DNA of 63,989 bases, counting the filler, from Atractiella rhizophila (taxonomy: Eukaryota): NCBI GenBank assembly GCA_021432655.1. It is 5 parts of 5 records of this genome, joined end to end, with 100 filler letters (N's around TTAATTAATTAA, not from the genome) between each part and the next. Parts side by side here need not be neighbours in the genome. Positions count along the whole stretch, not along the records: positions 1 to 16,465 come from MU271901.1; 4 more parts are not named here. One strand, given 5' to 3'. Shown here piece after piece: positions 1 through 31,166 of this stretch. The notes under the pieces were generated by a model. It was given only the letters and a program-made list of their open reading frames with translations, ran no database searches and was not told where the DNA came from. How positions within the stretch are numbered: the stretch's first letter is position 1; each line of letters opens with the position of its first letter. Both the position numbers and the translations under genes were made by a program.

Positions 1-3000
1 TAGAACGGGAACTTGGGGGGTGTGAGAGGGAAATAGTCTCACTCCAGGCAGGTGTAAGAGGGGTCTTAGCGAGGAGGAGGGAAGAAGAGAAGAGGAGGCT
101 GTTGAAAGAGGCGAAGAGGGATGTGGTGGGATTCCAGGCGAGAGCGAGGGGGATGATTGCTAGGCGGACGTTTGCGGAGGCGCTCGAGGTGAAGCGCGAC
201 GTGGATCGGTGGACCGTCACTTTGCAGGCTGCGGTCAGGGGCAAGTTGGCCAGAAGCGCGAGGAAGGAAAGAGAGACTGCTCTCAAGGACACCGAGGACG
301 TCATCCCCTTCCTCCAAGCTCACATTCGCGGCGCCCTCGTCCGTTCTCGACTTGCGAAACTTCGCGGAGCGCTGAGGATGGCCACGAGGGAGACGCAGGC
401 GTTGCAAGCTCTGTTGAAGGGCAAACTGGGTAGGCAGAAGCATAGGACGATGGTGCAGCGATTGTGGAGCGAGGATTATGGCGATTTTGCTATCCGACTC
501 CAGGCTCAAATTCGCGGTGTCCTCATACGGAGAAACTTCTTCTCCAACATTCGTGCGCTCGACGATGAGGAAGCTACGGTCAAAGGTTTCCAGGCGCTCG
601 CGAGAGGATTCTTGGCGAGGAAGAGGTACGAGGACACGATTATGGAGCTCTCCGAAGCCGTCGTCGAAGTCGTAGGCTTCCAAGGCGTCCTTCGTGGTGT
701 CCTAGCCCGGCGACAACTGCTGAACAAGATTCGAGCTCTTCGAGGGGCGGAAGACGCTGTGACTGGCCTTCAAGCTCATGCCAGAGGTGGATTGGCACGC
801 GCCGAGTTCAGAAGGATGAGCAGGGCGCTGCAACGTGTGGAAGTCAGTAGGAGCGTCGGCGGATTGCAAGCGTTCGCGAGAGCGGCGCTGGCGAGGAAGA
901 AGGTAGTGCAACAGAAGAAGGAGCTCGATTTCGTCGCCCCCGATGTAGTCGGTTTTCAGGCTCAGGTCCGTGGTGCGCTTGTGAGGAGGGAGTTCACGAG
1001 TTGGAGGGACTATCTCCTTGATTCTCAACCTGAAGCGGTCTACCTTCAGGCTCTTGTGAGAGGGTTTCTAGCGAGGAGGAGATTCTGGATGCGCATGAGG
1101 CATTTTGAGGAACATATGGAGAAGATTGTCAAGATCCAATCCATTTTTAGGGGCAAGCAGCAGGTCGAGCAGTATAAGCAGTTGACGATGGGGAAGAACG
1201 TGCCCCTGGAGACAATCAAGAACTTCATCCATCTCCTCAATGATTCTGACTTCGAATTCAACCAAGAAATCGAGGTCGAGAACCTGCGACAGGAGGTGGT
1301 GAAGGTCATTCGATCCAATCAAAACCTCGAACAGGATGTGACGGAACTAGAGGTCAAGAACGCCCTTCTTGTCAAGAATAAGATCACACTGGACGAAGTG
1401 GCTCGGGCTCGACGCAGCGTTGGAGGGACAATCGGCGCTGGACATCGAAACAGTATTCTCGCAGCCCACAAGGATCCTTTCGCCTCCACTCTAGATCGAG
1501 ATTCGAAACGGAAACTGGAGCTGTACCAACAATTGTTCTACCTCCTACAGACCAAACCTGAATACCTCGCGAGACTCTTCGCCATCCTAGGCAAAAACGG
1601 GATGGCAGAGAAGAACCGCAAGGTTTTTGAAGGAGTCGTCCTTACTCTCTTTGGATATGCACAGAATTCAAGGGAGGAGTTCTTGCTCCTCCGCGTTTTG
1701 CAGGTAAGTGATCGTCCACATGCACCATGAAAGGAAAACTGATGCGTTGTTCATCAGTCTGCCGTCCAAGAAGAAATGCAGTCGCTGCAAACCGTCGAAG
1801 ACTTTATCCACGGAAAATTCATGTTCATCAACCTTTGTGTACAATATGGTCGTGGTCTTAAGGAGAGAAAATACTTGCGCGACACTCTTGCCCCCCTCGT
1901 GGACAGCATCATTAGTCACAAAGACCTGGACCTGGAGACTGATCCAGTGAAGGTATGCTGTTTTATGCATTTTCTGTGCTTCCTCCTGTTCATGGCTGAT
2001 CGTAATTTCAAGATTTATCGCGCTTGCATTACGGCCGAAGAGTCTCGAACTGGTCTTGCCAGCAGACGACCTATCGATGTTAATTTCCACCAAGCATTGC
2101 AAGACGAGGAGACCCAACGCATGTTCATCAAGCGTATGTTGTACCTTCGTCATAAATGTATCCTCACTATTGTCGACAGATCTTCAATTGCTTCGAGCTA
2201 CCACTGAGTCTTTCCTTAATGGGTTAACTGCCTCGACACGACGGATGCCTTATGGGTTGCGATTCTTTTCCCGGGAAGTGTTCTTTGCATTGAAGGTGCG
2301 TGCAACTACTGTATCTGCTGTAAATGCTCACTAAGATTTCCTAGGCGAGGTTTCCCGAAGAGGTGGAGGAGACCCTTGTCCGAGTTGCATGCTACTTCCT
2401 TTACTATCGTTTTATCAACCCTGCCATTGTGTACGTCGTTTCCGTTCGATCCGTGAAGCCCGCTGAATTGTTCTGGAAGTGCACCTGAGGCTCTTGGTGT
2501 TGTGGATAAGACAATCGATCCTTTACAGAGGGCAAATTTAGCCGAAGTTTCGAAAATGCTCAACCAGATATCGATTGGCCGATTGTTCGGAAACGAGAAT
2601 CCTTACCTCCAACCTTTGAACGAATATGTCACTTTCGCCACAAACAAGATGTCGACTTGGTTCAGAGAAGGTGAGTATAGTTCTCTGTTGTGATAGCAAA
2701 GGCTCATTCCCAGGTAGTCATTGATGTCGTCGATGCTGATCAATACTTCCATGCGGACGAATATCTGGACCACACTATTTCGAAACCTGTCATCTACATC
2801 TCTCCGAATGAAATTTATGCCACTCACTCGCTAGTCATGCAACATCTGCAATACGTCGTGAGTAGTCTTACTCACTCGTTATTAGGCGCTCATGATGGTC
2901 AGGCTCCTGGAAATGACAATCCTCTTCGCTCCTGTCTCATCGAACTTGGGGCTGCTCCTTCAACCCATGCTTCCGACGACCTTGATGCCGCTCGATCATC

Positions 3001-4199
3001 TGAAGTGGCGTTGACTTTGACAAATCGGTTCTCAGAGGTTAGAGATCCGCACTCTGAAGAGAAAAATCTATTCGTCAAGACGAAACGATACGTTTTGTCT
3101 CTCCTCAAGGTGCAGCACGGCTCGAATCTTGTTGAGACATTCCTTCTTCCAGTAACCGAGGAGAACGAGGAGGCGTGGGCAAGAGTCATTGCAGAGGAAC
3201 TCGATCAGGACAGGAAGGAACTGAGCCGTCGACACAAGGCTCTCCCTTCGCCTGACATGGCAAACCAGCTGGAGGATGTGCGGAAGTAAGCTGATTTGTT
3301 CCATGCTTTCGCTTGCTGAGTTAGTTCGTGCAGCCTGTCCTTCAAAGAGCTCAAGGTCAGGACCTTGGAGAACATGCTCAAGTTGGAACAACTTGGGAAG
3401 GTCACCAGAGCCAACAATTATCAAGATATGCTCAATGCTATCGCTAATGACATTCGAATGAAGCGTAAGCTTGATGCAGATTCATCCAAGCTACGCTAAT
3501 AGCTGGCGCTAGATCGCAAACGAATGCAACGAGAAGCGGACATGAAGAACATGTATACGACCCTTTCTACGCTAGAGGACAAACGCACCTACCTTCAGGA
3601 TCAGATCAAGAAGTACCATGAGCACATCGAGTCATCGATGGCAACGATGCAGAAAAAGGGAAAGAAGAAGCGACTAGTTCTGCCTTGGACCAGCCAGTAT
3701 TTCCATATGCGGCATCTTGAAAAGATGGGTAAAGTGCCTCAGTTCGGAAGGTTCGTGCTCTTTCTCATCGGGAGCACCAAACGCTGACTCTTCATGGCAG
3801 CTACAAATACACAGCACAAAGGCTGCATGAAAAGGGAGTGCTTATTTCTATTGAGCAACACTCGGCTAGGGAGCTGCATAACATCTCGCTTACGATTAGC
3901 AGCGACGAGGTTGGAGTTTTCTTGATCGAATGTGCTCATTCGGGTGTGCCGATACCTGGTGGAACCATCGAATTGCGGATGGAGGATCTAGTGCGTGTCC
4001 ATATCGCTGTTGTTTGTCCAGGAGAACTAAGAACTGTTTACAGCTGGAGAGACAATTTAATAACGCGCAAACGATCAATATCAACTCTGTTGCAAAGTTT
4101 AACTTGAACCTCCTCTTATTCTTGATAAACAAAAAGTAAGCTCTCTCTCGACTGCGGAATAGAAGCTCACGCTGAGGTTGTGACAGATTTTATGTGTAA
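1..4199 (+). CDS. IQG1: IQGAP-family Ras GTPase-activating-like protein (Iqg1/Rng2-like), 5' truncated, multi-exon
   Basis: Frame is open from position 3 with many tandem IQ motifs (FQAxxRGxLARR). These are followed by a RasGAP-related domain (YQQLFYLLQTKPEYLARL, MPYGLRF, YYRFINPAI) and the RasGAP_C end (FNLNLLLFLINKKFYV*). Introns are short GT-AG; stop TAA at 4197-4199. Confidence 0.95.
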
Positions 4200-4506
4200 T
4201 TTGTACGCATTTCTCGCCATTTCACCGCACTTCTTTCGTATTTCAGCTGTTGTGCTCTTTGCTCTTTGTCTTCCCTAAAATCCCACAACCTTTGGTATAT
4301 GCAAGTAGATAGAAAGTAGGAAGGACGTGTCTGTAATTCTAATGTGCCATAGTCCACACAGAGCTTTGCCTGTTCTCCATCCATTTTGTTTCGACTATTG
4401 CTTATTATAGCTTGGAACATGAAACTTTACATATGATCAAGCTATCTGTGCATCTACCAAATCTAACATCTTGAGAGGAGTGACAGGAACTCGCCAGCAT
4501 CCCTAA

Positions 4507-4517
4507 TCACGTGAAAT
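4507..4517. promoter_or_regulatory. E-box TCACGTGA(AAT), candidate bHLH site upstream of the phosphotransferase gene
   Basis: Palindromic TCACGTGA about 70 bp upstream of ATG 4582; retained in the second haplotype copy near 10436. Confidence 0.35.
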
Positions 4518-4581
4518 GCCCTGTTGTCTTTCGCGGCAAGCCCAATTTGTCGAATTCTGAGTAAACCCAGTTGGGAGGACG

Positions 4582-6234
4582 ATGAACGTCAACTATCATC
4601 CCTTTGGCAGGCTGCCTGTGTGGACGGGAGGTGTTTCGAGGTACATCGAGGGCGAGGATTCCCTTCGCTGGTTGAAGTTAGTTCAAGTTATTTCCTCAGT
4701 GGAAGAGAATTCGACCTCATTCATCTCGCTAGATCCTACTCTTACCGATCCAAAGACCTGAGCCCAATATCTCACTATGTTCTTCGGTGAGCAAAGGTCT
4801 GACGCTACCCTGGCATGCTGATGAATGTTACAGACATTGGTGGAACTTCGTGGCCTCCCTGCTTCCTGATTACCTCCATCCGAACATGGTCACTTTACTT
4901 GGATTCGGATGCATCATGATCAACTTCCTTACTCTACTCATTTTCAGCCACGATTTAGCTGCTGCCGCTCCCAGTTGGGTGTACACAAGGTGGGTCAGTG
5001 TATTGTCGAAGATACAGATTGAGAGAACATGCGACCTAGCTTCGCGATTGGACTTTTCTGCTATCAGGTTCGCTATTGTTTTCCTCAGAAAATCTTATTA
5101 AAGATGATATCAACGTAGACCATGGACAGTATGTCCTCCAGTCGTTCAATTTCCCCAACTCATCCACCACACAGATGTCGACGGCAAGCAAGCGCGACGT
5201 CTTTCTCTTTCTTCACCGCTCGGTGAACTATTCGACCATTCGATTGACACCCTTAACTGTGGATTTGGTGCCTTGATCATCTGCGCTACCCTGGCTACGG
5301 GTCACTCTGGCGCATCTGTTTTCCTCCTCCTCATCGGTTGTTGGCCCATGTGCCTCAGCACTTGGGAAGAGTATCACACTGGCATCCTCTTCTTGGGATT
5401 CATCAATGGACCCACTGAAGGTCTCCTCATCGCAATGGCCACCCAGCTCGTCTCTGCAATCCATGGTCCGGAATTTTGGCGTCAGACTGCGTGGGACACC
5501 CTTGGACAACTTCCTTGGACGAATGCTGCAACTTCGATGCTGGATGTTTACCTCGCCTTCGTACTCCTTTGTTTCGTAGGTTTCCATGCTCCTGCTTGGT
5601 GCGCTATTTCTCGTTCCCTAACCGTTGGGTTTAATCTGTCGCAAAAGTTTCATAAACGTCTATCGTTCAATCCCTCCGAACGACTCTCGTCGTCGTGTTG
5701 TCATGTTCAGTGTATTCGAGCTCACGCCAATGGTACTCCTAACCGCACTCTTCTCTGCGTGGTGCTTCGGCAAGTATAGCATCATAATGCAGGATAAATG
5801 GCTTGTTCCGATGGCACTGATTTTGAGTGCGCCATTTCTTTCTTCTGCGTTTCAAAGTTGACTGCTATCCGAAGCGTTTTCATTCGGCAAGATCAATTCG
5901 AAAGTCATCCTCGCTCAGTTAACGCGAGGCGGTTTCCCTTACTCTCTCAACGTCCTGCTGCCGTTCCTCATCGGAGCCACCCTCGCAAACTATCCTTCTC
6001 TTGGCTTGTAAGGTTCCTCTCTCTTCCAGTCTGCTGCAAGCTGAGAAAGTCGACAAACTTAGGCCTGCACTCCCACACTCGGTCGAGAAGTGGTACATCT
6101 GCTACCTTCTCTTCAGCGCATTCGCTTCCTATTCTGTGCAGGCGTGGAGGACCATCGATGCGTTCTGCAAGACCCTCAATATCAACGCTCTCACCGTGAA
6201 ATCTGGGAGTGGACGAAGGGTGCTGACGCGTTGA
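4582..6234 (+). CDS. CPT1: CDP-alcohol phosphatidyltransferase (choline/ethanolamine-phosphotransferase), haplotype copy 1
   Basis: Spliced motifs YSYRSKDLSPISHYVLR/HWWN, HPNMVTLLG, DVDGKQARR...SSPLGELFDHSID and STWEEYHTGILFLGFINGPTEG are typical of CPT1/EPT1. Confidence 0.92.
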
Positions 6235-6249
6235 AGGACGGTGAGACTC

Positions 6250-6274
6250 NNNNNNNNNNNNNNNNNNNNNNNNN
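6250..6274. other. 25-N assembly gap
   Basis: Run of 25 N immediately before the mirror segment. Confidence 0.99.
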
Positions 6275-9200
6275 TATGCTTTCTTCACGCCACTTTACCG
6301 CTCTTTACGCATGTTTAATGTGTATTTTAGACAGTGTTGGAGTCGCACTCGAAGATAAGGCGTCAGCTCTCTCTCGAATGAAAAACAAATAGTTCTTATT
6401 CTCCTCCAAGTTCAATTTGAAACGTTGTCTCAACTATAACTAGCAAACGCGCAATAATTTAACAGAGAGGTCGACATTTGTCAAGAATCAAGAGGACCTG
6501 TTTGTTGTCGCTATACCTGTGCGTGATCTAGGAGGTAGGCGTTAAGCTACCAAGGTGGTCCATAGCCGTGTGGGCTTACTCGTGTAAGCTAGTTCTTTTG
6601 AGGTTGGAGCAGCGACGATTAGCATTCGCTCTACAATACGTCGAGGGATCGGCTCACAACGAGTTATCTTTATTCGTGAGGGAAAAGTACGTCGGAAACA
6701 CGACACATAAACATCGACGGTACTTCTCAGTCGCAAACCACGAGGGCTACTCTTTCTCGTGCTTGGAAGGCTTGACTCCGTGAAATGGGTAGAAAAGTTC
6801 TACGGCGTATACCTTTATGACCGACCAGGTTCCGTCTTGATCAGCGAAGAAGAAAGGGAAAAAGACGTAGCAACGGTAGCTACTGAGCTACACGAGTACC
6901 ATGAAGAACTAGACTAGGACTTCCATCCACGCAAACAGGAGATCGCATCTTTCCCAGCATATGTACAAGAAGTACAGGCGAAGAGCAACGTAAGCAAACG
7001 CTAGATCGCGGTCGATAATCGCATCGAACCTACTTAGACGTAGTTCGAATGCGAAGTAAGCTTACAGTAATCGCTATCGTAACTCGTATAGAACTATTAA
7101 CAACCGAGACCACTGGAAGGGTTCAACAAGGTTGAACTCGTACAAGAGGTTCCAGGACTGGAACTCGAGAAACTTCCTGTCCGACGTGCTTGATTGAGTC
7201 GTTCGCCTTTCGTACCTTGTTTAGTCGAATGAAGGCGTGTAGGAGGTCGACCAAACGGTACAGTCCGCTTCCCTCTCGGAACACAGCTGCCGAGTCAAGG
7301 AAGGACAGGACTAGCTCAAGGAGACGTTACTGAGAACGGGTGCGGAGGAGCAAGAGGAGCCAATGACCTTCTTCCTTACAGAGTTGTTCTAAGCTCGGCA
7401 CGACGTGGAACTCCTCTCTGTTTTGCATAGCAAAGCAGAACTGCTTATCTAAAAAGAGAAGTCTCACGCCTAGAGATTGGAGACTCTTGGCTAAACAGTT
7501 TCAGTTGCGGTGAAGTCTACTAGCTCGCCGTAGTTCCAGCAGCCTTCGTACCCAACTTCCTCGTCGGGGTCAAGCTACTCTGTCCTCGCTTCTCCTAACA
7601 GTAAAGGTCCTCGGACTGGTAGTACTCGCGGATTATTGCTCACTCATTCTGATGAGTGCTGCATAACGTCTACAACGTACTGATCGCTCACTCACCGTAT
7701 TTAAAGTAAGCCTCTCTACATCTACTGTCCAAAGCTTTATCACACCAGGTCTATAAGCAGGCGTACCTTCATAACTAGTCGTAGCTGCTGTAGTTACTGA
7801 TGGACCCTTACTCGGAAACGATAGTGTTGTCTCTTGATATGAGTGGAAGAGACTTGGTTCAGCTGTAGAACAAACACCGCTTTCACTGTATAAGCAAGTT
7901 TCCAACCTCCATTCCTAAGAGCAAAGGCTTGTTAGCCGGTTAGCTATAGACCAACTCGTAAAAGCTTTGAAGCCGATTTAAACGGGAGACATTTCCTAGC
8001 TAACAGAATAGGTGTTGTGGTTCTCGGAGTCCACGTGAAGGTCTTGTTAAGTCGCCCGAAGTGCCTAGCTTGCCTTTGCTGCATGTGTTACCGTCCCAAC
8101 TATTTTGCTATCATTTCCTTCATCGTACGTTGAGCCTGTTCCCAGAGGAGGTGGAGAAGCCCTTTGGAGCGGATCCTTTAGAATCACTCGTAAATGTCGT
8201 CTATGTCATCAACGTGCGTGGAAGTTACGTTTCTTGTGAAGGGCCCTTTTCTTAGCGTTGGGTATTCCGTAGGCAGCACAGCTCCGTCAATTGGGTAATT
8301 CCTTTCTGAGTCATCATCGAGCTTCGTTAACTTCTAGACAGCTGTATCACTCCTGTGTAAGTACTGCTTCCGTGTTGTATGCGAACTACTTGTACGCGAC
8401 CCAGAGGAGCAGAACGTTACGAACCACTTTTAATTGTAGCTACCCAGCAGATGAGCGTTCTGGTCAAGCTCTGAGAAGTCTGCATTACGTTCGCGCTATT
8501 TAGAACTTTAATGCTAGTCGGTACTTGTCCTCCTTCGTGTCTTTTACGTATTTTGTCGTATGGAAGTGACCTAGTCAGAGGTCCAGTTCCAGAAACACTG
8601 ATTACTACGACAGGTGCTCTCCCCGTTCTCACAGCGCGTTCATAAAAGAGAGGAATTCTGGTGCTGGTATAACATGTGTTTCCAACTACTTGTACTTAAA
8701 AGGCACCTATTTCAGAAGCTGCCAAACGTCGCTGACGTAAAGAAGAACCTGCCGTCTGACTACTTGTTGCGTAGTCAAAAGGAAAGTACCACGTACACCT
8801 GCTAGTGAATGGACGTTTTGCGCCTCCTCGTTCTTGAGGAGGGACCTTAAGACACGTATAGGTTTCTCTCATTCCTGCTGAGGAAGTTTTTGGAACGCCA
8901 AGAAGAGACGGTAGGGCAAAAACGGGTCCTACCGCTTCTCAGAGCGCTCCATAAGTCCAAACCAGACGTCCTCCATCTTGTTAACAACCATGTCGAGGTC
9001 AAAGGCAAAGCTTAGAGCTAGGTCTCACCTCCGCTTTCCTAGGAACACCCGCGCTCTTATGACAAAGCTACAGGTCGCGGCTAACAGGGAGGTTGCGACG
9101 CAGCTCGGGCTCGGTGAAGCAGGTCACACTAGAATAAGAACTGTTCTTCCCGCAAGAACTGGAGATCAAGGCAGTGTAGGACAAGCTCCAAAACTAACCT

Positions 9201-10170
9201 AGCTTACTGGAAGTGGTGGAGGACAGCGTTCAAGAGCTGGAGCTAAAGAACCAACTTAAGCTTTAGTCTTAGTAACTCCTCTACCTACTTCAAGAACTAA
9301 CAGAGGTCCCCGTGCAAGAAGGGGTAGCAGTTGACGAATATGACGAGCTGGACGACGAACGGGGATTTTTACCTAACCTAGAACTGTTAGAAGAGGTATA
9401 CAAGGAGTTTTACGGAGTACGCGTAGGTCTTAGAGGAGGAGCGATCTTTGGGAGAGTGTTCTCGGACTTCCATCTGGCGAAGTCCAACTCTTAGTTCCTC
9501 TATCAGGGAGGTTGAGCACTTGAGGGAGGAGTGTTCGCGTGGTGCCTGGACTCGGACTTTTGGTTGCTGTAGCCCCCGCTGCTTTAGCTCGAGGAAGAAG
9601 ACAACGTGGTGGAAGAAGGAGCGGTCGCGGCGAGAGCGCTTGCGAACGTTAGGGCGGCTGCGGGATGACTGAAGGTGTGCAACGTCGCGGGACGAGTAGG
9701 AAGACTTGAGCCGCGCACGGTTAGGTGGAGACCGTACTCGAACTTCCGGTCAGTGTCGCAGAAGGCGGGGAGCTTCTCGAGCTTAGAACAAGTCGTCAAC
9801 AGCGGCTCGGTTCTGTGGTGCTTCCTGCGGAACCTTCGGTTGCTGAAGCTGCTGCCGAAGCCTCTCGAGGTATTAGCACAGGAGCATGGAGAAGGAGCGG
9901 TTCTTAGGAGAGCGCTCGCGGACCTTTGGAAACTGGCATCGAAGGAGTAGCAGCTCGCGTGCTTACAACCTCTTCTTCAAAGAGGCATACTCCTGTGGCG
10001 CTTAAACTCGGACCTCAGCCTATCGTTTTAGCGGTATTAGGAGCGAGGTGTTAGCGACGTGGTAGCAGGATACGAAGACGGATGGGTCAAACGGGAAGTT
10101 GTCTCGAACGTTGCGGACGCAGAGGGAGCACCGGTAGGAGTCGCGAGGCGCTTCAAAGCGTTCAGCTCTT
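6275..10170. repeat. Mirror (reversed, not complemented) copy of 344-4241, second IQGAP haplotype; assembly artifact
   Basis: 6275 tatgctttcttcacgcc is the string-reverse of ...ccgcacttctttcgtat (ending 4241). The end ...aaagcgttcagctctt (10170) is the reverse of ttctcgacttgcgaaa (starting 344). Confidence 0.97.
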
Positions 10171-12179
10171 TTCAGCTGTTGTGCTCTTTGCTCTTTGTCT
10201 TCCCTAAAATCCCACAACCTTTGGTATATGCAAGTAGATAGAAAGTAGGAAGGACGTGTCTGTAATTCTAATGTGCCATAGTCCACACAGAGCTTTGCCT
10301 GTTCTCCATCCATTTTGTTTCGACTATTGCTTATTATAGCTTCGAACATGAAACTTTACATATGATCAAGCTACCTGTGCATCTACCAAATCTAACATCT
10401 TGAGAGGAGTGACAGGAACTCGCCAGCATCCCTAATCACGTGAAATGTCCTGTTGTCTTTCGCGGCCAGCCCAATTTGTCGAGTTCTAAGTAAACCCAGT
10501 TGGGAGGACGATGAACGTCAACTATCATCCCTTTGGCAGGCTGCCTGTGTGGACCGGAGGTGTTTCGAGGTACATCGAGGGCGAGGATTCCCTTCGCTGG
10601 TTGAAGTTAGTTCAAGTTATTTCCTCAGTGGAAGAGATTCGACCTCATTCATCTCGCTAGATCCTACTCTTACCGATCCAAAGACCTGAGCCCAATATCT
10701 CACTATGTTCTTCGGTGAGCAACGGTCTGACGCTACCCTGGCATGCTGATGAATGTTACAGACATTGGTGGAACTTCGTGGCCTCCCTGCTTCCTGATTA
10801 CCTCCATCCGAACATGGTCACTTTACTTGGATTCGGATGCATCATGATCAACTTCCTTACTCTACTCATTTACAGCCACGATTTAGCTGCTGCCGCTCCC
10901 AGTTGGGTGTACACAAGGTGGGTCAGTGTATTGCTCGAAGATACAGATTGAGAGCAACATCCGACCTAGCTTCGCGATTGGACTTTTCTGCTATCAGGTT
11001 CGCTATTGTTTTCCTCAGAAAATCGTATTAAAGATGGAATCAACGTAGACCATGGACAGTATGTCCTCCAGTCGTTCAATTTCCCCAACTCATCCACCAC
11101 ACAGATGTCGACGGCAAGCAAGCGCGACGTCTTTCTCTTTCTTCACCGCTCGGTGAACTGTTCGACCATTCGATTGACACCCTTAACTGTGGCTTTGGTG
11201 CCTTGATCATCTGCGCTACCCTGGCTACAGGTCACTCTGGCGCATCTGTTTTCCTCCTCCTCATCGGTTGTTGGCCCATGTACCTCAGCACTTGGGAAGA
11301 GTATCACACCGGCATCCTCTTCTTGGGATTCATCAATGGACCCACCGAAGGTCTCCTCATCGCAATGGCCACCCAGCTCGTCTCTGCAATCCATGGTCCA
11401 GAATTTTGGCGTCAGACTGCTTGGGACACGCTTGGACAACTTCCTTGGACGAATGCTGGAACCTCGATGCTGGATGTTTACCTCGCCTTCGTGCTCCTTT
11501 GTTTCGTAGGTTTCCATGCTCCTGCTTGGTGCGCTATTTCTCGTTCCCTAACCGTTGGGTTTAATCTGTCGCAAAAGTTTCATGAACGTGTATCGTTCAA
11601 TCCCTAAGAACGACTCTCGTCGTCGTGTTGTCATGTTCAGTGTATTCGAGCTCTCGCCAATGGTACTCCTAACCGCGCTCTTCTCTGCGTGGTGCTTCGG
11701 CAAGTATAGCATCATAGTGCAGGATAAATGGCTTGTTCCGATGGCACTGATTTTGAGTGCGCCATTCCTCTCTTCTGCGTTTCAAAATTGACTGCTATCC
11801 GAAGCATTTTCATTCGGCAAGATCAATTCGAAAGTCATCCTCGCTCAGTTAACGCGAGGGGGTTTCCCTTACTCTCTCAACGTCCTGCTACCGTTCCTCA
11901 TCGGAGCTACCCTCACAAACTATCCTTCTCTTGGCTTGTAAGATTCCTCTCTCTTCCAGTCTGCTGCAAGCTGAGAAAGTCGACAAACTTAGGCCTGCAC
12001 TCCCACACTGGGTCGAGAAGTGGTACATCTGCTACCTTCTCTTCAGCGCATTCGCTTCCTATTCTGTGCAGGCGTGGAGGACCATCGATGCGTTCTGCAA
12101 GACCCTCAATATCAACGCTCTCACCGTGAAATCTGGGAGTGGACGAAGGGTGCTGACGCGTTGAAGGACGGTGAGACTC
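10171..12179 (+). repeat. Direct near-identical duplicate of 4242-6249 (alternative haplotype)
   Basis: Starts ttcagctgttgtgctc as at 4242 and ends gtgagactc as at 6249, with scattered SNPs and small indels. Confidence 0.97.
10511..12164 (+). CDS. CPT1: CDP-alcohol phosphatidyltransferase, haplotype copy 2
   Basis: Same exon structure as 4582-6234 with a few substitutions (e.g. PMYLSTW vs PMCLSTW; PHWVEK vs PHSVEK). Confidence 0.9.
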
Positions 12180-12469
12180 ATCAGAGCTCTGTTTTGATAT
12201 ATGCTTCTATTCCTGAAATGGAACGTAACATAACGCTCTGTTCCCTTATTCTCATTCGCACCTTCGTCACATCCACATTTGCTTGACGCACTAACCTACG
12301 GCAGCTTGACGGGAGGACTGTTCTACGGAAATATTGAGTTAACTGAAGCAGCGAAGCTAGCGCTGTTTTGTGGAACACCTCTAGTGCACGACAAAACAAA
12401 GTCTCGGTAACAGAGGGAGACAATGACAATCACTCTCTATATTCTTACGATCCGAAAACACCTGTGCTA

Positions 12470-13282
12470 NNNNNNNNNNNNNNNNNNNNNNNNNNNNNNN
12501 NNNNNNNNNNNNNNNNNNNNNNNNNNNNNNNNNNNNNNNNNNNNNNNNNNNNNNNNNNNNNNNNNNNNNNNNNNNNNNNNNNNNNNNNNNNNNNNNNNNN
12601 NNNNNNNNNNNNNNNNNNNNNNNNNNNNNNNNNNNNNNNNNNNNNNNNNNNNNNNNNNNNNNNNNNNNNNNNNNNNNNNNNNNNNNNNNNNNNNNNNNNN
12701 NNNNNNNNNNNNNNNNNNNNNNNNNNNNNNNNNNNNNNNNNNNNNNNNNNNNNNNNNNNNNNNNNNNNNNNNNNNNNNNNNNNNNNNNNNNNNNNNNNNN
12801 NNNNNNNNNNNNNNNNNNNNNNNNNNNNNNNNNNNNNNNNNNNNNNNNNNNNNNNNNNNNNNNNNNNNNNNNNNNNNNNNNNNNNNNNNNNNNNNNNNNN
12901 NNNNNNNNNNNNNNNNNNNNNNNNNNNNNNNNNNNNNNNNNNNNNNNNNNNNNNNNNNNNNNNNNNNNNNNNNNNNNNNNNNNNNNNNNNNNNNNNNNNN
13001 NNNNNNNNNNNNNNNNNNNNNNNNNNNNNNNNNNNNNNNNNNNNNNNNNNNNNNNNNNNNNNNNNNNNNNNNNNNNNNNNNNNNNNNNNNNNNNNNNNNN
13101 NNNNNNNNNNNNNNNNNNNNNNNNNNNNNNNNNNNNNNNNNNNNNNNNNNNNNNNNNNNNNNNNNNNNNNNNNNNNNNNNNNNNNNNNNNNNNNNNNNNN
13201 NNNNNNNNNNNNNNNNNNNNNNNNNNNNNNNNNNNNNNNNNNNNNNNNNNNNNNNNNNNNNNNNNNNNNNNNNNNNNNNNNN
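12470..13282. other. Scaffold gap (813 N)
   Basis: Run of N. Confidence 0.99.
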
Positions 13283-14300
13283 CAGTTGTCGTAGGTTAAG
13301 TAGGAGACTCCGTAGCTTCTTAACTAGGGGGAGAAGTAGGTGGAGGTAAGAAACGCGAACTGAGAGAGGGTCGGGGAGTTTGACTGAGCATCGATGGTGA
13401 GAGAAGGCGAGGGAGAGGCGGGGAAGTTAGTTAACGAGGGAGTCGAGAAGAAGCGAGTAGGCGGGGAAAAGGAGAGAAGCAGTAGGTAGGGAAGGGGGAC
13501 AAACCCTCTTCGCTAAGCTCACCGATTCAGACTTTTGGCGAGACCCCCGTAGCCTTCGTCCTTCTCTTTTTGCTCACCCAACAAAACCGAAACACTAACC
13601 CTTAAGCAAGCCATCGCCACCTACCTCTTTCCTCCCATGTCTCGGCTCATACCGCTTGACAAACGGTAGATACTGCTCGCTGCGACGGAAGCAGGAGAAG
13701 AAGGCGACAACATCAAAGCCACTACCTCCACCTACACCTCTAACCCTCTGCCCGCCGCAAACTAACACCCCTCCAACGCCAACTTCCCCTCCTCTACTTC
13801 CTCCCTCTCCGCTCACCCCATTCTCTCCCCTTCTGTCGCTGTGGGGACGATCCTACAGTTCTCCGCCTCTATATCTGGAACTACTTCGCAAGCACCCTCC
13901 CTATCCTCTTAGTCTACCACCCTGTCCACTCCTGAACCCAACACTACCAAAGACCACAACATCTCCTTCTCGGTTTCCTCCGCTGCTACCTCCACCCGTT
14001 TCTTGCGGAGTCAAAGAGGACAGTTAGGAAGCAGCAGCAGAACCAAACCCGGTAGCGACGGCTGTAGCAAACTTGAGCGATGTGGAGAGAGAGGCGAGCC
14101 AACCTTACGATGAGAGTGAGTTGCGGTATCTTAATGTGAGGGATTAACCTTTCCTTTTGAGCTGGCTGATGACACCCGTGTGGGAGCAGGATTTCATCGT
14201 GCAGGATGTGAGCGGAACACAGATGCGAATGCCAGACGGTAAGGAATTCTAGGTACAAGGGCATCGCACTACAGTAAAGCGACAGGAAGTGTTGTTGTAT
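13283..14300. other. Second mirror (reversed, uncomplemented) segment containing the 3' part of a Pro/Ser-rich gene with an acidic tail
   Basis: Read right-to-left without complementing, 14008 to 13283 is one 242-codon frame with a single TGA. It ends ...MSEEELREQLIEGAERERKRVVATSQFEGLGESQAQRMEVDEEGDQFFDASEDELDAVD. The forward text is TAG-rich (reversed GAT). Right boundary approximate. Confidence 0.8.
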
Positions 14301-14375
14301 TAATGAGGTGCACGGAATTGCATAATTTACAAAACCTTGGACTATACTTGGGCCATGCTGAACAGCATGAAACGT

Positions 14376-16465
14376 TCACCATCCCTCAAAGTTCCCAAAC
14401 CCTTTTGTCTTCTTCTTCTTTCTCTCATCGCCTCTTCCATCAGCATTCCCAACATCCCCCAAACCACTGAGTCCGCTTAGGAGCCCTTGCTCCTCAAGCT
14501 TCCTCTTCTTGACCACTTTCTCCCCTGCTTCCTTCTCCTCTTCAGGCTTCAACTTGACTCCGAACCAATTAACATCTGCTCCCTCCCCATCCCCCTTCTT
14601 CCCACTCTTCTCCGCCTCCAAATAGCCCCTCTTCCTCTCCCTCCTCCCCTTCCACTCTGCAAAGGCGTCCTTAAACACCTCCACCTCCACTAACCTTATA
14701 TCTCTCAACGGCTTCTCCCCATCACAACGCGCTTTCTCCATCCTATCCAGCGTCTCTTCTCCCCCAACCAACTTGCCGAAGACCGTGTGCTTGGAGTCCA
14801 GGTGAGGTGTCGCTTTGAAAGTGAGGAAGAATTGGCTGCCATTCGTGTTCGGGCCGGAGTTGGCCATGGATACCACACCCCGCGCGTCGTGTTTATAGGA
14901 CGAACGTTGTATTTCGTCCGCGAATCGTGTGCCCCAGATACTCTGCCCACCGCGTCCTGTACCCGTTGGATCCCCTCCTTGGATCTGGATCACACAGTCA
15001 GACGTCAGTTCTGTATTCAGGAAGATTAATTATGAGCGGCATGACCCAAAGCAGGTCGTCGTGAGGAGAATGCAGGCGCAGAAGAGAAAAGACGACGCGA
15101 AAAAAGATTAGGGAAGCGAGAACGAAGAGGATACTAACCATGAAACCGGGTATAAGCCTATGGAAGATCGTATTGTCATACTTTCCCTCTTCCGCCAGTC
15201 GCATGAAGTTATAACATGTGCGCGGTGCGCGATCCGAATGCAGCTGGAGAATAACGATCAGATCTCATTACGCACTGAACACAGAGCAGATGGACAAAGA
15301 ATGAACTCACCTCTAAATTGAGAGGACCCAAAGATGTGACGAGTCGTAGGTAAGACTTATCCTTTATCTGAGGAAACATAATCTCTTCCTAGTCCATGCA
15401 TACGCATAAGCATTTCTCAGATCCAAACGCTGGCGAAAGAGAGAAAGACGCACCTCTTCTAAATCCTCTCCCTCATTCTTGGTGACCACACTCGCCGCTG
15501 TGCTCGTCAAACTACTAGATACCAATCCCTTCGAGAAAGCAGACTGAGCCTTCTTCTCTTCTTTTTCTTTTACCTCCGGCTGTTGTTCTTGCGCTTTAAC
15601 AGGTTGCTTGCCCTTGTCCTTCGCCTTTGAAGATTGCGCTGTGGAGGCATCGGAAGCTGTCGTCTTGCCTGTCGCGCGAGCGACCGCCTTTGCGAGACCA
15701 GGGTTCGTGAGATTTATGGTGCCTTCTTCTTCGGCAGAGGACACTTTTAGGGCATTTTTGAGGTGGTGGAAGTTGGACAGGTCGCGGGTTTTGGTATCGT
15801 TTGGGTCCTGTACCCATCAATTCATATGGCATTTAGGCGAGGAGACTGGCGTATAGCGAACCTGGATTGTGACGATATCACTCTTGGAAATCTCTTCGTC
15901 AGTGATCAAATCCCTCCACCACCCCGCTTTGATATTCAATCTCTCGACCGTATCCTTCGAATACACATTCCCGCTCTTGAGCACGGCGACGATGGCGGAG
16001 TGATGTGTGAAGACCTTGAACGTCAGAGGGTCTATGTATTCCCCCTCTTCGTTCGTCGTGAAATTGAGAGGGAAGAGGTCGGACGAGGTGAGGGGTGAGC
16101 CTGTGACGGGGGAGATGTTGCCATACTGCCTATCATTTATTCAGCTATCTTTCTATCGAGATTGAATGAGGATACAGACCTCAAGAAAGGTATAATGTTG
16201 GCTACACACCAGCATGAGCTACTTCAAACGCAGTAAACGAGTAATCTCACAAACGTCGTAAACGATTCCCTCCCTCTCGCACACTGGATTCTCAAACGGC
16301 TTCAGCGAGAGCGCACAATGGTCGAAAGGCAGTCGAGCGAAGGAAGCTGGCCGTTGGGACGAGGACGATGAGGCATGGCCTGCTGAAGTGGCGGAATGGC
16401 CTCCAGCTGAGTGTTCAGAGTAGGTCACGTAGAGTTTGTCGGTTTTTTTCTGACCCTCTTTTCAG
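14376..16465 (-). CDS. PPIL2: Peptidyl-prolyl cis-trans isomerase-like 2 (U-box/RING + cyclophilin), 5' end truncated at contig edge
   Basis: N-terminal [10 protein letters not shown]...[19 protein letters not shown]; cyclophilin motifs [52 protein letters not shown]-terminus GFGNFEGW*. Confidence 0.93.
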
Positions 16466-16565
16466 NNNNNNNNNNNNNNNNNNNNNNNNNNNNNNNNNNN
16501 NNNNNNNNNTTAATTAATTAANNNNNNNNNNNNNNNNNNNNNNNNNNNNNNNNNNNNNNNNNNNN
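16466..16565. other. Artificial contig-joining spacer (44N-TTAATTAATTAA-44N)
   Basis: Six-frame stop linker, identical at four positions; genes are truncated at both sides. Confidence 0.98.
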
Positions 16566-19210: not shown

Positions 19211-19368
19211 TCTGATTTGTCTCCTTACTCCCTCGCCACAGCTTGTTTAAACAAGGTAAAGAAAACTGCCTTCTTGTTGCCCACACATCCATGAGAGCCG
19301 ACCCCTTTCAATTCACAATGTTCCTGCATCTCTATCTAACAATTTCCTCAAAGGAACGCAAGCGAAAG

Positions 19369-21499
19369 ATGCGCAATTTACGCCTTCGATCATTTGTCAA
19401 ACCGGACCCTTCGGTGCAGCAGATGAGGTCCCCTGCACTGCGTCTCAACTCAACAGCAATCCAATCGGGCGAAAGAGATAATTCTCTGCTGAATGTATGG
19501 TATAGAATTAAAAAAGAAGATTTCAATCATCCGTCTCTCGACACTGGAAGGCTTTTCCAGGTCACGTACAAGGATCACCTCAAAGGAGAACTAGAGGCTC
19601 TGCGGCGCTTTGATTTCGTGCCATTTCATGAGCAGATTCTGGTGACAGGATTGATGTAAGCTTTATCTCTTACTTTTGAATCGCGGTTTTAGAGCCCCTC
19701 AATTTTCGGTGTAGCGATGCTTCGCACAGGTTGGCCTCATTCACAGACGACCTGCGCCATCTTCTCTCGTACTTTCATCCTTCTCAATGCTTAGAACCTG
19801 TTCAAATTCAGTGTACATCCACGTTCACGGCCAGAACCCCTGCCTGTGGTTCTCCTGAGCTAGAGATTGTGCGGATCCTTCATGAAGATAGATGTTTGAT
19901 GACAATCTTGCTTCTGGTGTGCCATTGTTTCACTTCTGTTCGCAAACGGCTGACTCGCCACCTAATGGTAGCCGTATGGAGTGCTTTGTGATCAAGATTG
20001 GGAAGAGTTTGACAAGACAGATTTCGACAACTTGGGCAACACCGTTTCAGGACAATACCTGGAGGTTCTTGCAGGTATAATGGCTTCAGAGCCATTAAAG
20101 TCGACGGCAGTTCTTTGCGACATGCAATCATCTGTGACACTCCGCCTAAACTACACAATAGCTTATTCTTTTCATTCGCAGGAGCCTTATCTGCCTCTCA
20201 TGGCCTTGCTTTGTGAGATTTGTGCCAAATCGGGTTCCGGACAGTATTCCTGCCGCACTGGACAGCCTCTTTTCCCGGACATAGCTGTTGCGGGATGTCG
20301 AAGAGATCCTTCAGCTGGATTGCAACTTGATTTGACGGCCATCTCTACATCTTCCGAATTCGACTTATTCGATGTTCAGACTGCCGGCTATACTTTCCAG
20401 CGAGCCATTATAAGGTGGCATGAGGAGCGCTTGCACAAAGGGAAGTTATGGCTGGATAATTTAGAAGTACCTGGAGCAAGTCTGACGGTCGTGTCTGTTC
20501 TCGAGTCAACAAACCTCAGGTCCACTGAACCTCTGCTCATTCTCAGTACCTCCGATCCTCTTGTACTTTTCCGACAGAACATCATGCTTCATGCCATGTC
20601 CAAGCAACGATCTTCCCTGCCCGCCATTGATCTCAAAGTCGGTGAATCTATTCAGCTGCTCCGTTCTCTCAGGTCGGGGCAACAACTGTGGGGACAGGTT
20701 TACGAAGTGACAATCCCTGGCAGAGAACTCAGCGGTACCCGTCTTGTCCTGAAGATTTATGAAGAGCGGTTGTACCCCTTTCCAGCCTGGAACGGGCCAG
20801 AGGAGGAAGGTTCGAAGCGCATTCGGCGCTGGCCTGATGCGAAGGATTGTTTAGCACGGGAGCAATCTGCTTACTGTTCATTACACTTACTCCAAGGGTC
20901 AGCTATACCGAGGTCTTACGGTTTCTACGAGGTGAGTTTTGTGGTTGCATCACATCAGAACTGAAAGAGAGACTAGGTACGGCTGTCGGATGGAACATTC
21001 GTCCCCGCACACTTGCTAGAGTTCGTGGAAGGTCCTCATATCGACAAAGCAGGTCTGCAATCATTTTCAGCTGAAGATCAGCAAGCATTTGTGAGTAGCT
21101 CCTCATCTATCCCCTTCCTATCCGCTGATTTTGGTAGTACATCAACGCGATGACGATGATTGGTGCCGTGTTGCTTCTAGGTGTGAATCACACCGACATT
21201 GATCAGCGACCAGACAAATCATCTGCCATAGCGATGGATCGGGAGTGCCCAATCCTGTTCTTCTGGATTTTGGAATGTCGAACTGTGGCATTTTCATGGA
21301 CGACAGCGCTTTAAACTCAAAGGATCTCGCATGGGATCTTGAAGTCCTGGGCACTCCAGATTCGTTGCACATGACCTGGGGATTGTGCCACTACTTGGGA
21401 TGGAGAAGTATCCGTGCGCATCCTGAAGGAGTTTCGACTTATGTTTGGGAGTGGATGAAGACCGTCAACTTTGGTCCATTTGAGGTGAAGTGGGATTGA
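19369..21499 (+). pseudogene. Lineage-specific protein with C-terminal atypical protein kinase-like domain (copy 1), frameshifted
   Basis: GQQLWGQVY, LVLKIY, REQSAY..L..LQGSAIPRSYGFY, LLEFVEG, HTDI, VLLDFG. A 1-nt deletion near 21215 (ccagacaaatc vs ccagatcaaatc in copy 2) puts DFG out of frame with HxD. Confidence 0.75.
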
Positions 21500-21671: not shown

Positions 21672-22170
21672 GTCCCTTGAGCATTGATAACCATTTAATA
21701 GACATCCGAATCTTTCGTGCGATCTACACATATCGACCGATGGAAGGGACGTAGTTAGGATTCTGAGTCCGGTTATGCAGTGGACTAACTATTAAAATGC
21801 AATGCATGATAGATATCTACTTGGAATGCAAAACCATGCGACGGTGCAATTTTTTGCAACATTAACGCTCCGTATTGATGTCATCTTTCCTTTCCCCGGC
21901 GCTTGCCGCCTCCTCAACAATCTTTTGCATCCATTTCTCTTAGTTCCGAAGAATGGTCAAGTCAAAAACGTACCTCGGCCAATTTCCCGACGCCAAGTCT
22001 CACGCTAAATCGATCTCTTCTCTCGGATTCCAATAGTCTAGGAGAAGAAAACACCACCATTGAATATTGAACGATGAGGATGATGCATAGGTGATACACT
22101 CCACATGCATCATAACTATTTATCAATTCATCTCATCCAACAAGCCTGAGGGGAAATAAAAAGAAATTGG
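21672..22170 (-). pseudogene. Diverged duplicate of the PIG-A 3' end (last exons + 3' UTR; matches 26996-27513)
   Basis: Colinear similarity (e.g. aaatgcaatgcatgatagatatctacttggaatgcaaaac in both) with indels disrupting the coding part. Confidence 0.85.
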
Positions 22171-23599
22171 CAGTCCCAACGTTGTCTTGCGCTCCTGAAA
22201 GATATTTTCGCTCCATCATCAGTACAGCCAGCAGATCGCAAGCGTGCCGCACATTGACGGGGCAGTCGAGCAGAAGGTACTTTCAATTGAGAAAGCATCT
22301 ATGGAATAATGAAGCACGCATTTGCTGAGAGAGTTCTGTGTGTCAGGTTGAGGCTTAAGCAACTGGCCTCAACTGAGGATGCAGGCCGACAAAGTCCATT
22401 CGACAGCCCATACTGCTGGTTCCATAATCTGCTTGCTTGATTGTGACGAAGAGGAGCTCTCATATCTCGATCTCGAATACAAACGGCTCCCACAAGACGA
22501 TTTAGTCATCGGGTAACCAGGAGAAAGTAGTCATAGCCCCGTGCTGGAAGTTGCCTAACCAACACCAAGTGCCCCAACCTAGCTTCTCGTTGTGAGAGCA
22601 TCATGAAGGAGCGAAGACAAGTGCGCAAGCGGTCCATAAACAGTTAGTTGGCATACTGCATCGAGTGGACCTAGAACTTCTTCCCCTTACTCCAAATGAC
22701 TGAGTGTACGAGCCTGCAACAACAGTTGATGGTGAGAAGACGATTAAGCTGAGTGAAAAGGAGACGGACATACTATGAGCTTAGGAACATGTAATGACCA
22801 AACGACGCCAGAATAAAACTTCAAGTTTTGCCTCCATCCACCGAACAGTAACCTAGCTCTCAGTGATCCCATCAACATATCAATCCGTCGCCGCAGGTTT
22901 CTTGGTACGCTACCGGTGCGTGGTATCGACTCGGCTCGTAACAGAATTGGTAGGTCTGTTAAGAAAAACAGTCCTCGGGTGAGCTACGTCGTGTTCAGAG
23001 GCACTTTGACGTGGTGGCTACACTTCATCCTCCTCCTCGGAACATCTGAGTACCAGCCTGATACACTTTCTCTTATCATCTTGTTCGCAGACACGATCTC
23101 CTCCCCGGTCCACTCTCTAAAGAAATAAACGAACCTTAAGACCATCACACGTCCTCATTCCATTCAGCCCTTCTCAACTCCTCTCCTCGCCAATCCCCAA
23201 AGAGCCTGCAAATAAAGTCTGGGAAGTCGGACGAATCCACCATGCAGTACTGGGGCGATATCCTACATATCGTCGTTACATTTTTGAGGTTCCGAAGGGC
23301 GAGGAATGAGGTTCGACGTTTCTTTCACCGCCGTCGAGGGGTCAGAGGTGAGGCCGGCGAGGAGTGTGAGGCGCAACAGGTCGAGCGCAGTGAGTTCGTT
23401 CTATCAGAGAAGGGGTAACCCCTGGAAAAAAGCGATGTTACGGAATAGGGTTCCGTTGGTGGTCATGGTGTTAGGACACGATGGGCTTATGGGTTGGTGT
23501 TTGCGTGGTGTTAGGATAGTGTTGAGGGAAATGTCGAATCGGGATCGAATCCTCAATATTGAATCGAGAAACAGATACGAACATAAAAGCTTCTTGCTG

Positions 23600-24745
23600 A
23601 AAATTATCTCCCAAGTACGTCAGAGGTCCGACCCCTCCGCATCCGACCACCATATCCAAAACGACAAAGTCGACAATTTCGCTCCTCAAGTTCACGATCG
23701 ACGCGTCAAACTCTCCCACAGACTCAGATACCTATCAACTAAATTGGGATGACAGCGCCGTTCGAAACAAGCTCCTTTGCATGTTTCGCATCTGCTGGCC
23801 TCATCGACGTGACTTTGTGCACGCGTCAATTTCGTCGAAACGCGATATTTTGACACCAAATTTGGATATGATTCCCTTTGGGTGGCTATACACGGGATAA
23901 GGTGGGTCTGAATCGACGTGATGGTTACACCAAATCAGAAAAGTTTGTCTGTTTTCAGAGTGATTGGACTTTAGAAGGGGATGCTACTGGAAAACCAATA
24001 ATACCTTGGTTCGTCTTGCCGCCTGCAAAGGTACGCGGCTGCTCCTTAACCAGTCAGACGCATTCTGATCCCCGTTTGCTGTTTAACCCAGCAATTTGCC
24101 CTGTCAAGCCTTCTTATCCGAATGAGTCGACGTATTGTGACTTGTAAGTGTTTCATTTCCTTCCTCGTACATCCTCAAACTGATCTCCTTGTACTAGGGC
24201 CACGCAAGGTATGTGGTTTCCCCCGCTTTCTATCCTGTTTTCTCTTCTCTCTTTTCAGTCAGTAGAGCTAATAGTTTGTTTGGGTCCGTAGGTCCCCGTC
24301 TTTCCTCATCTCCAGCATTCAAGCACTGTGGCTGATTGCTCCCTTTCGCCTCGATTTGTCTTATAGGGGCTGCATCGCAAGGAACTCGCCGAAGGAAGGA
24401 ACGATTAGAAGCCACCTCGCCACTTGGCGTCCTCTCCCGCCCTTCCCTCTTCCTTCTCCCACCTCTCCCATCGACCACTTCTCGCTGCAACGCGGTCGTC
24501 CTTGTTATCCTACACCTTCTCCAAGTTCGCTATACTGAAATCCAGCTTTTACCCGGCGAGACTTGCTTCAAGCCATCGATGAGCCTTCAAAGCGACTCGT
24601 CTATTCGACTTTTGCCAAGTTTTTTGGTGTCGGTGAGGGGAGGATTGGAAGCAGTGGAACCTGGAGAAGAGCTTGGGTTGTCCTTACCAATAACGAGGGG
24701 TGGGAGAGGAATGGGGAGGCAGTGAGATATAAGAATATGCAGTAA
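23600..24745 (+). CDS. Hypothetical multi-exon gene, possibly degenerate
   Basis: GTAAGT..CTGAT..TAG and GTATGT-type intron signals at about 24145-24365; terminal exon LLQAIDEPSKRLVYSTFAKFFGVG...RYKNMQ*. Start unclear. Confidence 0.35.
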
Positions 24746-25448
24746 TACGATTACTTTCAAAATAATAACACTATTTGACCCAAAAGCAAACGCTACCTAA
24801 AGAAATTCCAAACCTAGAGAACGGTAAATGGACGAAAGCGGAACGAAACAAGAACACCATAAATACCCTATCCAAAGACCATTGAACGAAATAGGGTACA
24901 CTATCCTAACACTACTTTACCACTATCCAACGTAATTTATAAGCTCAAGTAGCGCCGATTTGACGTTGTTGGATGGTGTTCGAGTGGTGTTACGGTTATT
25001 TTGGCCAAGATTTAAGCCACTCGAGCCGCGACCCCTAAGTCAACACTACGAGGCCGCTAACTAAAGGAAGTGCGTTATTTCAGGGGATTGTTCCAGAAGA
25101 GAAGGCTGACTGGTGGAAGTGATGCATCGATGGTGATGATGAACCACGACCTACAAACCGTTTTGCCTACTGCCAACCTGCAACCAACCAGCTTCTTCCA
25201 CAGCAAGCAACGTGAAAGCTTGAGCTCTTATCCAACACCAATTTCCCCGGCATCCAACAGTGACTACCGAACTCGAAACGCCATCCAACACTCTTTCATC
25301 TTCCTTCATCACACACGAAGTTTGAACCGACTCCGCCACCGGCACGGCACCTTACATCCATTTCTGACGCGAAACAAGCCTCCCACCGTCCATGATGACA
25401 GGGGTTGATAACACGCTACGCCGACGTAGGTTTTAGCACTGTGCATTC

Positions 25449-26173: not shown

Positions 26174-27184
26174 GATCCAATAATGGGCTGGACGCTGTTT
26201 TCGCAGTTTCTTTTCAGAATGTTTCCTTTGTCGAGTATGTTCTATTTTGCCGACATTCTTTATCGCACAGTAATATTGGGCTTCTCTTCTGAGATACATT
26301 CGCTCTTGTAACCCTTTTCCTGCCTATTCGCCTGTTCAAAATTACATAGCTTTCTTACTCCATGACCTCACACTTTGCAGGTAATGTGGTTTTTGTGTCT
26401 GAAATGTATTACGCTTCCTAACATCGTGCCTTCATTGAACCCCCCAAAAAGTTAGATGGGATTGAGCTCACAATGAAACTTTGGAAGATCGACGGTTAAT
26501 AAGCCCTTTTGCCTCCAAAACTTCTTTCATTTTAGGTTTCTGTGTCTAAAAATCAGGCCGAGAGCCATGAGTTTTACGACACACTCAGCATTTCATCTCA
26601 GCAAACTCTGAGCTTTCGATCCTTTACAGTAGTCGACGTAATTGGAATTTGAATTTAGACAGGCAATAGAAATTCACTTAACCATATAACTAAATGCTCG
26701 GGGTAATAAGGAGAACTAAGTCCAACGATTAATGATTAATAGATTGGGAATAGCGAATGTAGGAGGTACCCGTGATGTAGTATGTGGTTTCGGGAAAGCG
26801 AGCAAGAGAACGAGTTCAAGAAGACGAATAGAAGCAATAACAATGTTTGTCACAGTAGCAAAGTAAATTCACTGTGGAGAGTGTGAGCCATCATGCCAGT
26901 TTCCCAGAGTAGAAAGACGAACACGAAAGATGGTCGGGTTGTTCTGGCAGGTCTGTTGGAGATCAATGATACTACTGTCTTGCGTTCCGGATGCCGTCCC
27001 TTGAGATTGATAACCATTTACTAGACATCCGAATCTTTCGTGCGACCTACACATATTAACCAATGGGACGAAGGTAGGTAGGATTCTGAGTCCGGTCATG
27101 CAGTGGAGTAACTATTAAAATGCAATGCATGATAGATATCTACTTGGAATGCAAAACAATGCGACGGTGCAATTTTTTGCAACA

Positions 27185-30945: not shown

Positions 30946-31166
30946 ACGTTTACCCAAAAAACGGAGCCTTCACGAAGCATGAGTTGAAGGATTTGACGAT
31001 GTCGTTCTCTCTCTCGGCTGCACTTGTTTGAAACAAGGCATACAGGACTGCCATTGTTGTCCTTTCTACTCTGTATCCATAAAACCTCATACGGATGATG
31101 ATTCTTCGCATAGCTATCTACCATCATTGAACTTATACAATATTTCCTCAGGAAGTCGAGCGGACC

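Follow-up and report, generated by a model that had tools for sequence, protein, structure and literature searches.

A 3.9 kb part of an IQGAP-like gene written backwards without complementing at a scaffold gap of Atractiella rhizophila: a probable assembly artefact

How could several kilobases of a gene come to stand backwards, and uncomplemented, in a genome sequence? The question is raised by assembly GCA_021432655.1 of Atractiella rhizophila, in the window analysed here (the whole 63,989 nt stretch, which consists of five joined parts, with 1–16,465 from MU271901.1). At 6275–10170 lies a block that a first, sequence-only reading had taken for the mirror image of 344–4241, part of an IQGAP-like gene. 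We know of no templated polymerase reaction that yields an uncomplemented reverse copy. The evidence set out here makes it very probable that the mirror is an assembly artefact, produced by a half-done reverse complement on a leftward extension and accompanied by a false allelic duplication.

The block stands at the edge of a scaffold gap. Contig A, which carries what we call copy 1, ends at 6249 and is separated by 25 N (6250–6274) from contig B; the first base of the block directly follows this gap. Contig B ends at 12469, where a second scaffold gap of 813 N begins (12470–13282), and the remaining N runs of the window belong to four composite linkers. When the window was used to query its own uncomplemented reverse with BLASTN, the reversed 6275–10170 matched the plus strand of 344–4241 with 99.179% identity over 3,900 columns (26 mismatches and six one-base gaps, E = 0), as had been claimed. 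This was the sole mirror pair in the window at E ≤ 1e-10. The next-best mirror match, found in a second run that used short words and admitted E values up to 10, spanned 44 columns and scored 35.6 bits, whereas the block scored 6,868 bits. When the block as written was compared with both strands of 344–4241 by ordinary BLASTN, nothing above 26.5 bits (14–19 nt) was returned. In an ungapped comparison, the six insertions or deletions (indels) reduced the identity of the copies to 45.9%, and gapped alignment was used instead. Position 6275 corresponds to 4241 in copy 1 and position 10170 to 344, so that the two mirror arms, each of 3.9 kb, lie 2,033 bases apart. The sign of the GC skew is the same in both stretches (+0.313 at 1–500 and +0.219 at 9501–10000), which fits plain reversal and not reverse-complementing.

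To the right of the block, the sequence is in its normal direction. Positions 10170–12179 match 4241–6249 directly (97.762% identity, 2,011 columns, 42 mismatches, three gaps), and the junction is exact: 6294 to 6275 read backwards, followed by 10171–10191, reproduce 4222–4262 of copy 1 letter for letter. Flipping the block in place therefore gives one continuous second copy of 344–6249, and this part of the earlier proposal held up.

Copy 1 shows what the block would encode. The IQGAP-like gene occupies 3–4199 on the plus strand, with its 5′ end cut off by the start of the window, and has Pfam matches to IQ (PF00612, 1.1e-35), RasGAP (PF00616, 9e-18) and RasGAP_C (PF03836, 1.6e-06). Among the matches listed, at least 120 homologues, mostly basidiomycete IQGAP/Rng2-type proteins, are 42–59% identical and have the same Pfam set. 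With tblastn, three full-length IQGAP homologues align to copy 1 over 12–4008, beginning at approximately their residues 430–590, and the gene runs off the first base of the window. Copy 1 shares the IQ repeats, RasGAP domain and RasGAP C-terminus of the IQGAP/Rng2/Iqg1 family; the calponin-homology N-terminal part lies outside the window, and the mirrored copy, unlike members of the family, encodes nothing as written.

Contigs from three public runs were compared with the window. Runs X1 and X2 are from one sample (organism A), and X3, with spliced contigs, is from a related organism (organism B). From the X3 contigs came eight GT..AG joints; six belong to the IQGAP gene, the other two to the phosphatidyltransferase gene described below. 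The exons of the IQGAP-like gene in copy 1 include 3–1703, 1758–1952, 2013–2133 and 2180 onwards; with introns 1704–1757, 1953–2012 and 2134–2179 removed, the frame is open over 3–2316. A further intron is at 3286–3333 (GTAAGC...GTGCAG). As the stop codon is at 4197–4199, the mirror boundary at 4241/4242 falls 42 nt into the 3′ flank, and the block thus comprises the 3′ 3.85 kb of the gene together with that flank. The end of contig A, 4242–6249 (plus strand), is the counterpart of 10171–12179 and contains intergenic sequence and a CDP-alcohol phosphatidyltransferase gene with introns at 5827–5874 and 6008–6062 from the X3 joints. PF01066 was detected in both copies, at 5108–5779 and 11032–11607.

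The coding signal of the block appears when it is flipped. Its longest open frame is 130 amino acids as written and 474 amino acids flipped. None of the 22 open reading frames of at least 60 amino acids in the block as written had a Pfam match (E ≤ 0.01), and when the three IQGAP homologues were compared with the block as written by tblastn the best E value was 2.5; the suggestion that the open reading frames called there are spurious was borne out. The flipped reading was evaluated with scripts.

Global alignment of copies 1 and 2 found 77 differences, of which 32 are in the mirrored part (26 substitutions and six one-base indels) and 45 in the direct part (42 substitutions and three indels), corresponding to divergences of 0.8% and 2.2%, respectively. 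The 26 substitutions in the block all fall within 674–2202 of copy 1. Twenty-three are exonic and change 21 codons, and in the flipped frame 20 of these codons are changed synonymously, the exception being GCC>TCT (Ala>Ser) at 2034–2036. The codon changes cited in the sequence-only reading are among those present (GTA>GTT at 672–674, CTA>TTG at 702–704 and GCC>GCT at 705–707). The remaining three substitutions and an indel at 2170 are in intron 2134–2179, and an indel at 3310 is in intron 3286–3333. Exon 1 served as a control. In its true forward frame, 12/12 changed codons are synonymous, compared with 0/13 and 2/13 in the other forward frames, a maximum of 11/13 in antisense frames and a maximum of 8/13 as written. 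From this pattern, we conclude that selection acted on the flipped reading and that the DNA from which the block comes is real and belongs to a second haplotype.

Mosaic in make-up, the block resembles a second allele over 674–2202 and has no substitution relative to copy 1 over 2203–4241, and a local consensus built from the reads of both haplotypes would give such a pattern. It also contains four private exonic one-base indels, namely GGGG>GGG at approximately 852, GG>GGG at approximately 861, loss of an A at 1463 and TT>T at 2946. These are absent from an X2 contig that covers 501–1477 with 0 gaps and from the contigs that reach 2946. As they break a frame in which the substitutions are otherwise silent, they are best read as consensus errors, and they fit the error pattern of an unpolished fill. 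Between the two copies, a 2.2 kb segment that spans the mirror boundary (2203–4413) is free of substitutions.

The run contigs place both copies at one locus. Placed forwards on copy 1, X1 and X2 contigs carry the same letter as the block at 19 of its 26 substitutions (674, 702, 704, 707, 905, 950, 1250, 1284, 1589, 1670, 1895, 2034, 2036, 2060, 2063, 2072, 2087, 2117 and 2160) in the 40 rows of the comparison shown, to which 74 further rows belong; the other seven block substitutions are outside those 40. Two of the six block indels, at 2170 and the additional C behind 3309, are also present in X1/X2 contigs. Since both letter states occur within one run, in X1 contigs at 1184–1250 and 2034–2160 (e.g. 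a depth of 277.8 of 396.1 at 2034–2160), the sample is heterozygous. Variant letters of the direct part of contig B were likewise found in X1 and X2, at 4445, 5031, 5095, 5107 (X1 only), 5108, 5299, 5352, 5380 and 5416, as was an additional C at both 5005 and 5025. One 1,127-letter X1/X2 contig spans 3365–4491 forwards and so crosses 4241/4242, with the contig B letter at 4445.

At the other end, contigs covering the end of copy 1 continue past 6249, by 137 letters in X1 and X2 and by 17 in X3, and these ends match the sequence from 12180 onwards: X1 and X2 agree at 24 of the 30 letters shown, and X3 at 17/17. As the contigs pass from 6249 to the sequence at 12180, 344–6249 and 6275–12179 are two alleles of a single locus that has been written twice. 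Thus, 10171–12179 is the correctly written, second-allele copy of 4242–6249, and 12180–12469 is the true continuation of contig A past 6249 (both plus strand). Over 1–10230, contigs covered 19/30 bins in X1, 19/30 in X2 and 15/30 in X3, all within 1–6479. None of the 11 bins in 6480–10230 was covered in any run, and as these data are contigs only, the uncovered part was not counted as evidence. The sampled-word shares for 6275–12469 were 0.21, 0.20 and 0.06, from which no conclusion was drawn, with 10231–12469 outside the region of the contig comparison. In the IQ-repeat stretch 209–494, the covering X1/X2 contigs have unmatched ends before 209 and behind 494, which may mean that alleles or assemblies differ in their IQ-repeat count.

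In a real genome, symmetry holds under reverse-complementing and is broken by plain reversal. We therefore gave each interval a direction score, log[f(k-mer)/f(reversed k-mer)] summed over its k-mers, and estimated the frequencies from the remaining scaffolds of the window, both strands included. At k = 5 and an interval length of 500 nt, all 13 intervals in the block were negative (mean −48.7, range −78.7 to −20.7), and 219 intervals elsewhere had a mean of +40.6 and a minimum of −14.9, with five weakly negative. The weakest of the normal intervals, 24566–25065 (−14.9), 54124–54623 (−10.0) and 22566–23065 (−5.5), are far from the block values and are probably noise. Open frame, homology, synonymous variation and k-mer direction thus all place the biological signal of the block in the flipped reading only.

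Low scores were also obtained directly to the right of the 813-N gap, where 13283 to approximately 14071 gave −55.6 and −31.8 over 500 nt. When each distinct k-mer was counted once, as a guard against low complexity, this stretch fell below 135/135 control intervals at k = 4, 5 and 6 and scored like pieces of the known block. Its change point is at 14071; for the known block the same estimation gave 10263 instead of 10170, an error of 93 nt, and the position is therefore good to approximately ±100 nt. The left edges of both gaps are normal (+37.5 and +21.0), and none of the first intervals that follow the linkers scored low. We regard 13283–14071 as probably a second mirrored stretch. Its longest open frame, 142 amino acids as written and 175 amino acids flipped, is Pro/Ser/Leu-rich in both cases and uninformative. 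Just to the right, a correctly oriented open reading frame on the minus strand (14379–15029) encodes a cyclophilin-type peptidyl-prolyl isomerase (PF00160, 1.6e-28).

These observations can be accommodated as follows. Contig A (to 6249) and contig B (6275–12469) represent the same locus in a heterozygous, basidiomycete-like fungus, and their 5.9 kb overlap (344–6249 and 6275–12179), present as two alleles, went unrecognised, so that both were kept across a 25-N gap. The outcome is a false duplication of the 3′ part of the IQGAP gene and of the neighbouring phosphatidyltransferase gene. Contig B would originally have started at 10171, and a gap-filling or contig-extension step would have prepended 3,896 bases. 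A leftward extension, whether made on the complementary strand or outwards from the contig edge, needs reverse-complementing before it is prepended, and here only half of the operation was probably done; complementing without reversing and writing in extension order would lead to the same backwards string. Because a mirrored extension would not be recognisable as overlapping contig A, the gap would have stayed unclosed, with a nominal 25 N, and the allele copy would have been retained. The mirror, its seamless junction once flipped, the allelic relation of the copies and their continuity as a single locus are demonstrated above; the origin of the block as an extension and the kind of software involved are inferred. 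The gap-filler explanation offered in the sequence-only reading fits the start of the block at the gap edge, its seamless right-hand end, its private indels and the second reversed-like stretch. A systematic gap-filling bug, which across the assembly, and possibly in other assemblies, would leave kilobases of mirrored sequence at the right-hand edges of gaps, is a tentative extension to which we give a little less than an even chance.

Several points weigh against this account. The public runs consist of contigs rather than raw reads, and the assembly may have been made from the sample behind X1 and X2, in which case they are not independent of it. The last six of the 30 letters shown for the X1/X2 loose end differ from the sequence at 12180 onwards. 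The block also lacks the second-allele variants that the run contigs carry at 2320, 2333, 2339, 2365, 2395, 2410, 2687 and 3491. Hence the initial view that its differences represent a real second allele stands in so far as they are synonymous when flipped and 19 of 26 recur in the runs, but the block as a whole departs from a clean second allele and is therefore a mixed-haplotype consensus or a third haplotype. The stretch at 13283–14071 is of low complexity, purine-rich and then pyrimidine-rich, and has no forward copy in the window. That both right-hand gap edges of the scaffold, and neither left-hand edge, look mirrored comes from k-mer statistics alone and is a strong lead, not proof. No paper on mirrored (uncomplemented-reverse) blocks was found by full-text literature searches, which is not proof that the fault is undescribed. 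A gap filler presumably leaves exactly 25 N at an overfilled gap. Among programs, PBJelly fits: extension of flanks and 'overfilled' gaps that lead to inflated assemblies and duplicated genes are described for it (PMC3504050, PMC9635638, PMC7757076), and a gap is defined there as 25 or more N. However, the passages concerned say nothing of 25 N remaining after filling and mention no orientation fault, and we do not attribute the block to this program.

Of the other explanations, the one that survives best also invokes an artefact. The block could be a piece of independent origin (a small contig, say, or a consensus from finishing or polymerase chain reaction) that was joined by hand or by an in-house script with 'reverse' or 'complement' misapplied. 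The resulting string would be the same, and a consensus made separately would suit the haplotype mosaic and the private indels. However, the block abuts contig B without a gap or overlap error and ends exactly at the gap edge, and the second reversed-like stretch at the next gap suggests a systematic routine rather than a single slip. We consider a join of this kind unlikely.

Far less probable still is that the mirror was made when the window or a pseudomolecule was concatenated, or was planted as a control by reversing 344–4241. Some post-assembly handling of strings did take place, as small scaffolds are joined by artificial linkers (N44-TTAATTAATTAA-N44) with stops in all six frames, at 16466–16565, 33010–33109, 49524–49623 and 62042–62141; the window is thus a chain of small scaffolds, among them scaffolds of approximately 16.4, 16.4 and 12.4 kb, rather than a single natural stretch. 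However, the block lies within a scaffold at an ordinary N gap and not at a linker, the scaffold starts that follow linkers are normal in the direction test, and the block differs from 344–4241 at 32 places, of which 19 substitutions and two indels match public-run contigs. A genuine 3.9 kb same-strand mirror copy in fungal DNA, arising by some unknown parallel-orientation copying or ligation, has in its favour that the string is in the deposited sequence and nothing more, and is extremely improbable: it is established knowledge that no templated polymerase reaction makes one, the variants of the block are found forwards in the run contigs, one contig crosses 4241/4242 forwards with the contig B letter at 4445, contigs pass from 6249 straight to the sequence at 12180, the synonymous pattern indicates selection on the forward reading up to the present level of allelic divergence (approximately 1%), and the start of the block coincides exactly with an N gap.

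An artefact of gap filling and allelic duplication can be compared with known systems. False haplotypic duplications at contig ends are known in heterozygous assemblies, and here, too, two alleles that are 0.8–2.2% apart, with synonymous differences, stand side by side across a gap. Ordinary haplotypic duplicates, however, are direct or reverse-complement and are found by self-alignment, whereas two thirds of this one is mirrored and invisible to standard aligners. In long-read gap filling of the PBJelly type, locally assembled reads lengthen the contig ends that flank a gap, and if the overlap goes unrecognised the gap persists beside redundant sequence (PMC3504050, PMC9635638, PMC7757076). 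Redundant sequence is likewise present at an open gap here, with 5.9 kb written twice around 25 N; the passages on PBJelly describe no backwards, uncomplemented extension. Biological mirror repeats of the H-DNA (triplex) type share the same-strand symmetry when read both ways. They are tens of bases long and homopurine–homopyrimidine, with arms that adjoin a centre, whereas the block is of mixed composition (GC 0.40–0.59, skews within approximately ±0.31) and has 3.9 kb coding arms that are 2 kb apart. It is unlike this class in composition, arm length and arm spacing, and an assignment to it was rejected.

Other repeats were seen elsewhere in the window. Two near-perfect tandem duplications, one of 663 nt (40534–41196 and 41204–41866; 97.6% identity, 7 nt spacer) and one of 308 nt (34589–34896 and 34912–35219; 99.0% identity, 15 nt spacer), could be real repeats or further assembly redundancy. 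The second small scaffold contains dispersed direct repeats of 1.9 kb (19342–21228 and 31142–33009; 79.7% identity) and 0.42 kb (21672–22091 and 26996–27408; 92.4% identity) that may represent a mobile element or members of a gene family.

Users of the record should note that approximately 5.9 kb (344–6249 and 6275–12179) is a false duplication, and 3.9 kb, probably with a further 0.8 kb (13283 to approximately 14071), is sequence absent from nature. Gene models, primers and read mapping there are wrong. Because aligners compare forward and reverse-complement strands only, a mirrored block escapes alignment-based quality checks. The k-mer direction score, which separated the 13 block intervals from 219 others without using a forward copy, could be used to screen whole assemblies. 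As to the biology of A. rhizophila, there is neither a mirror gene nor a second IQGAP locus here, and the biological interest of the block is low.

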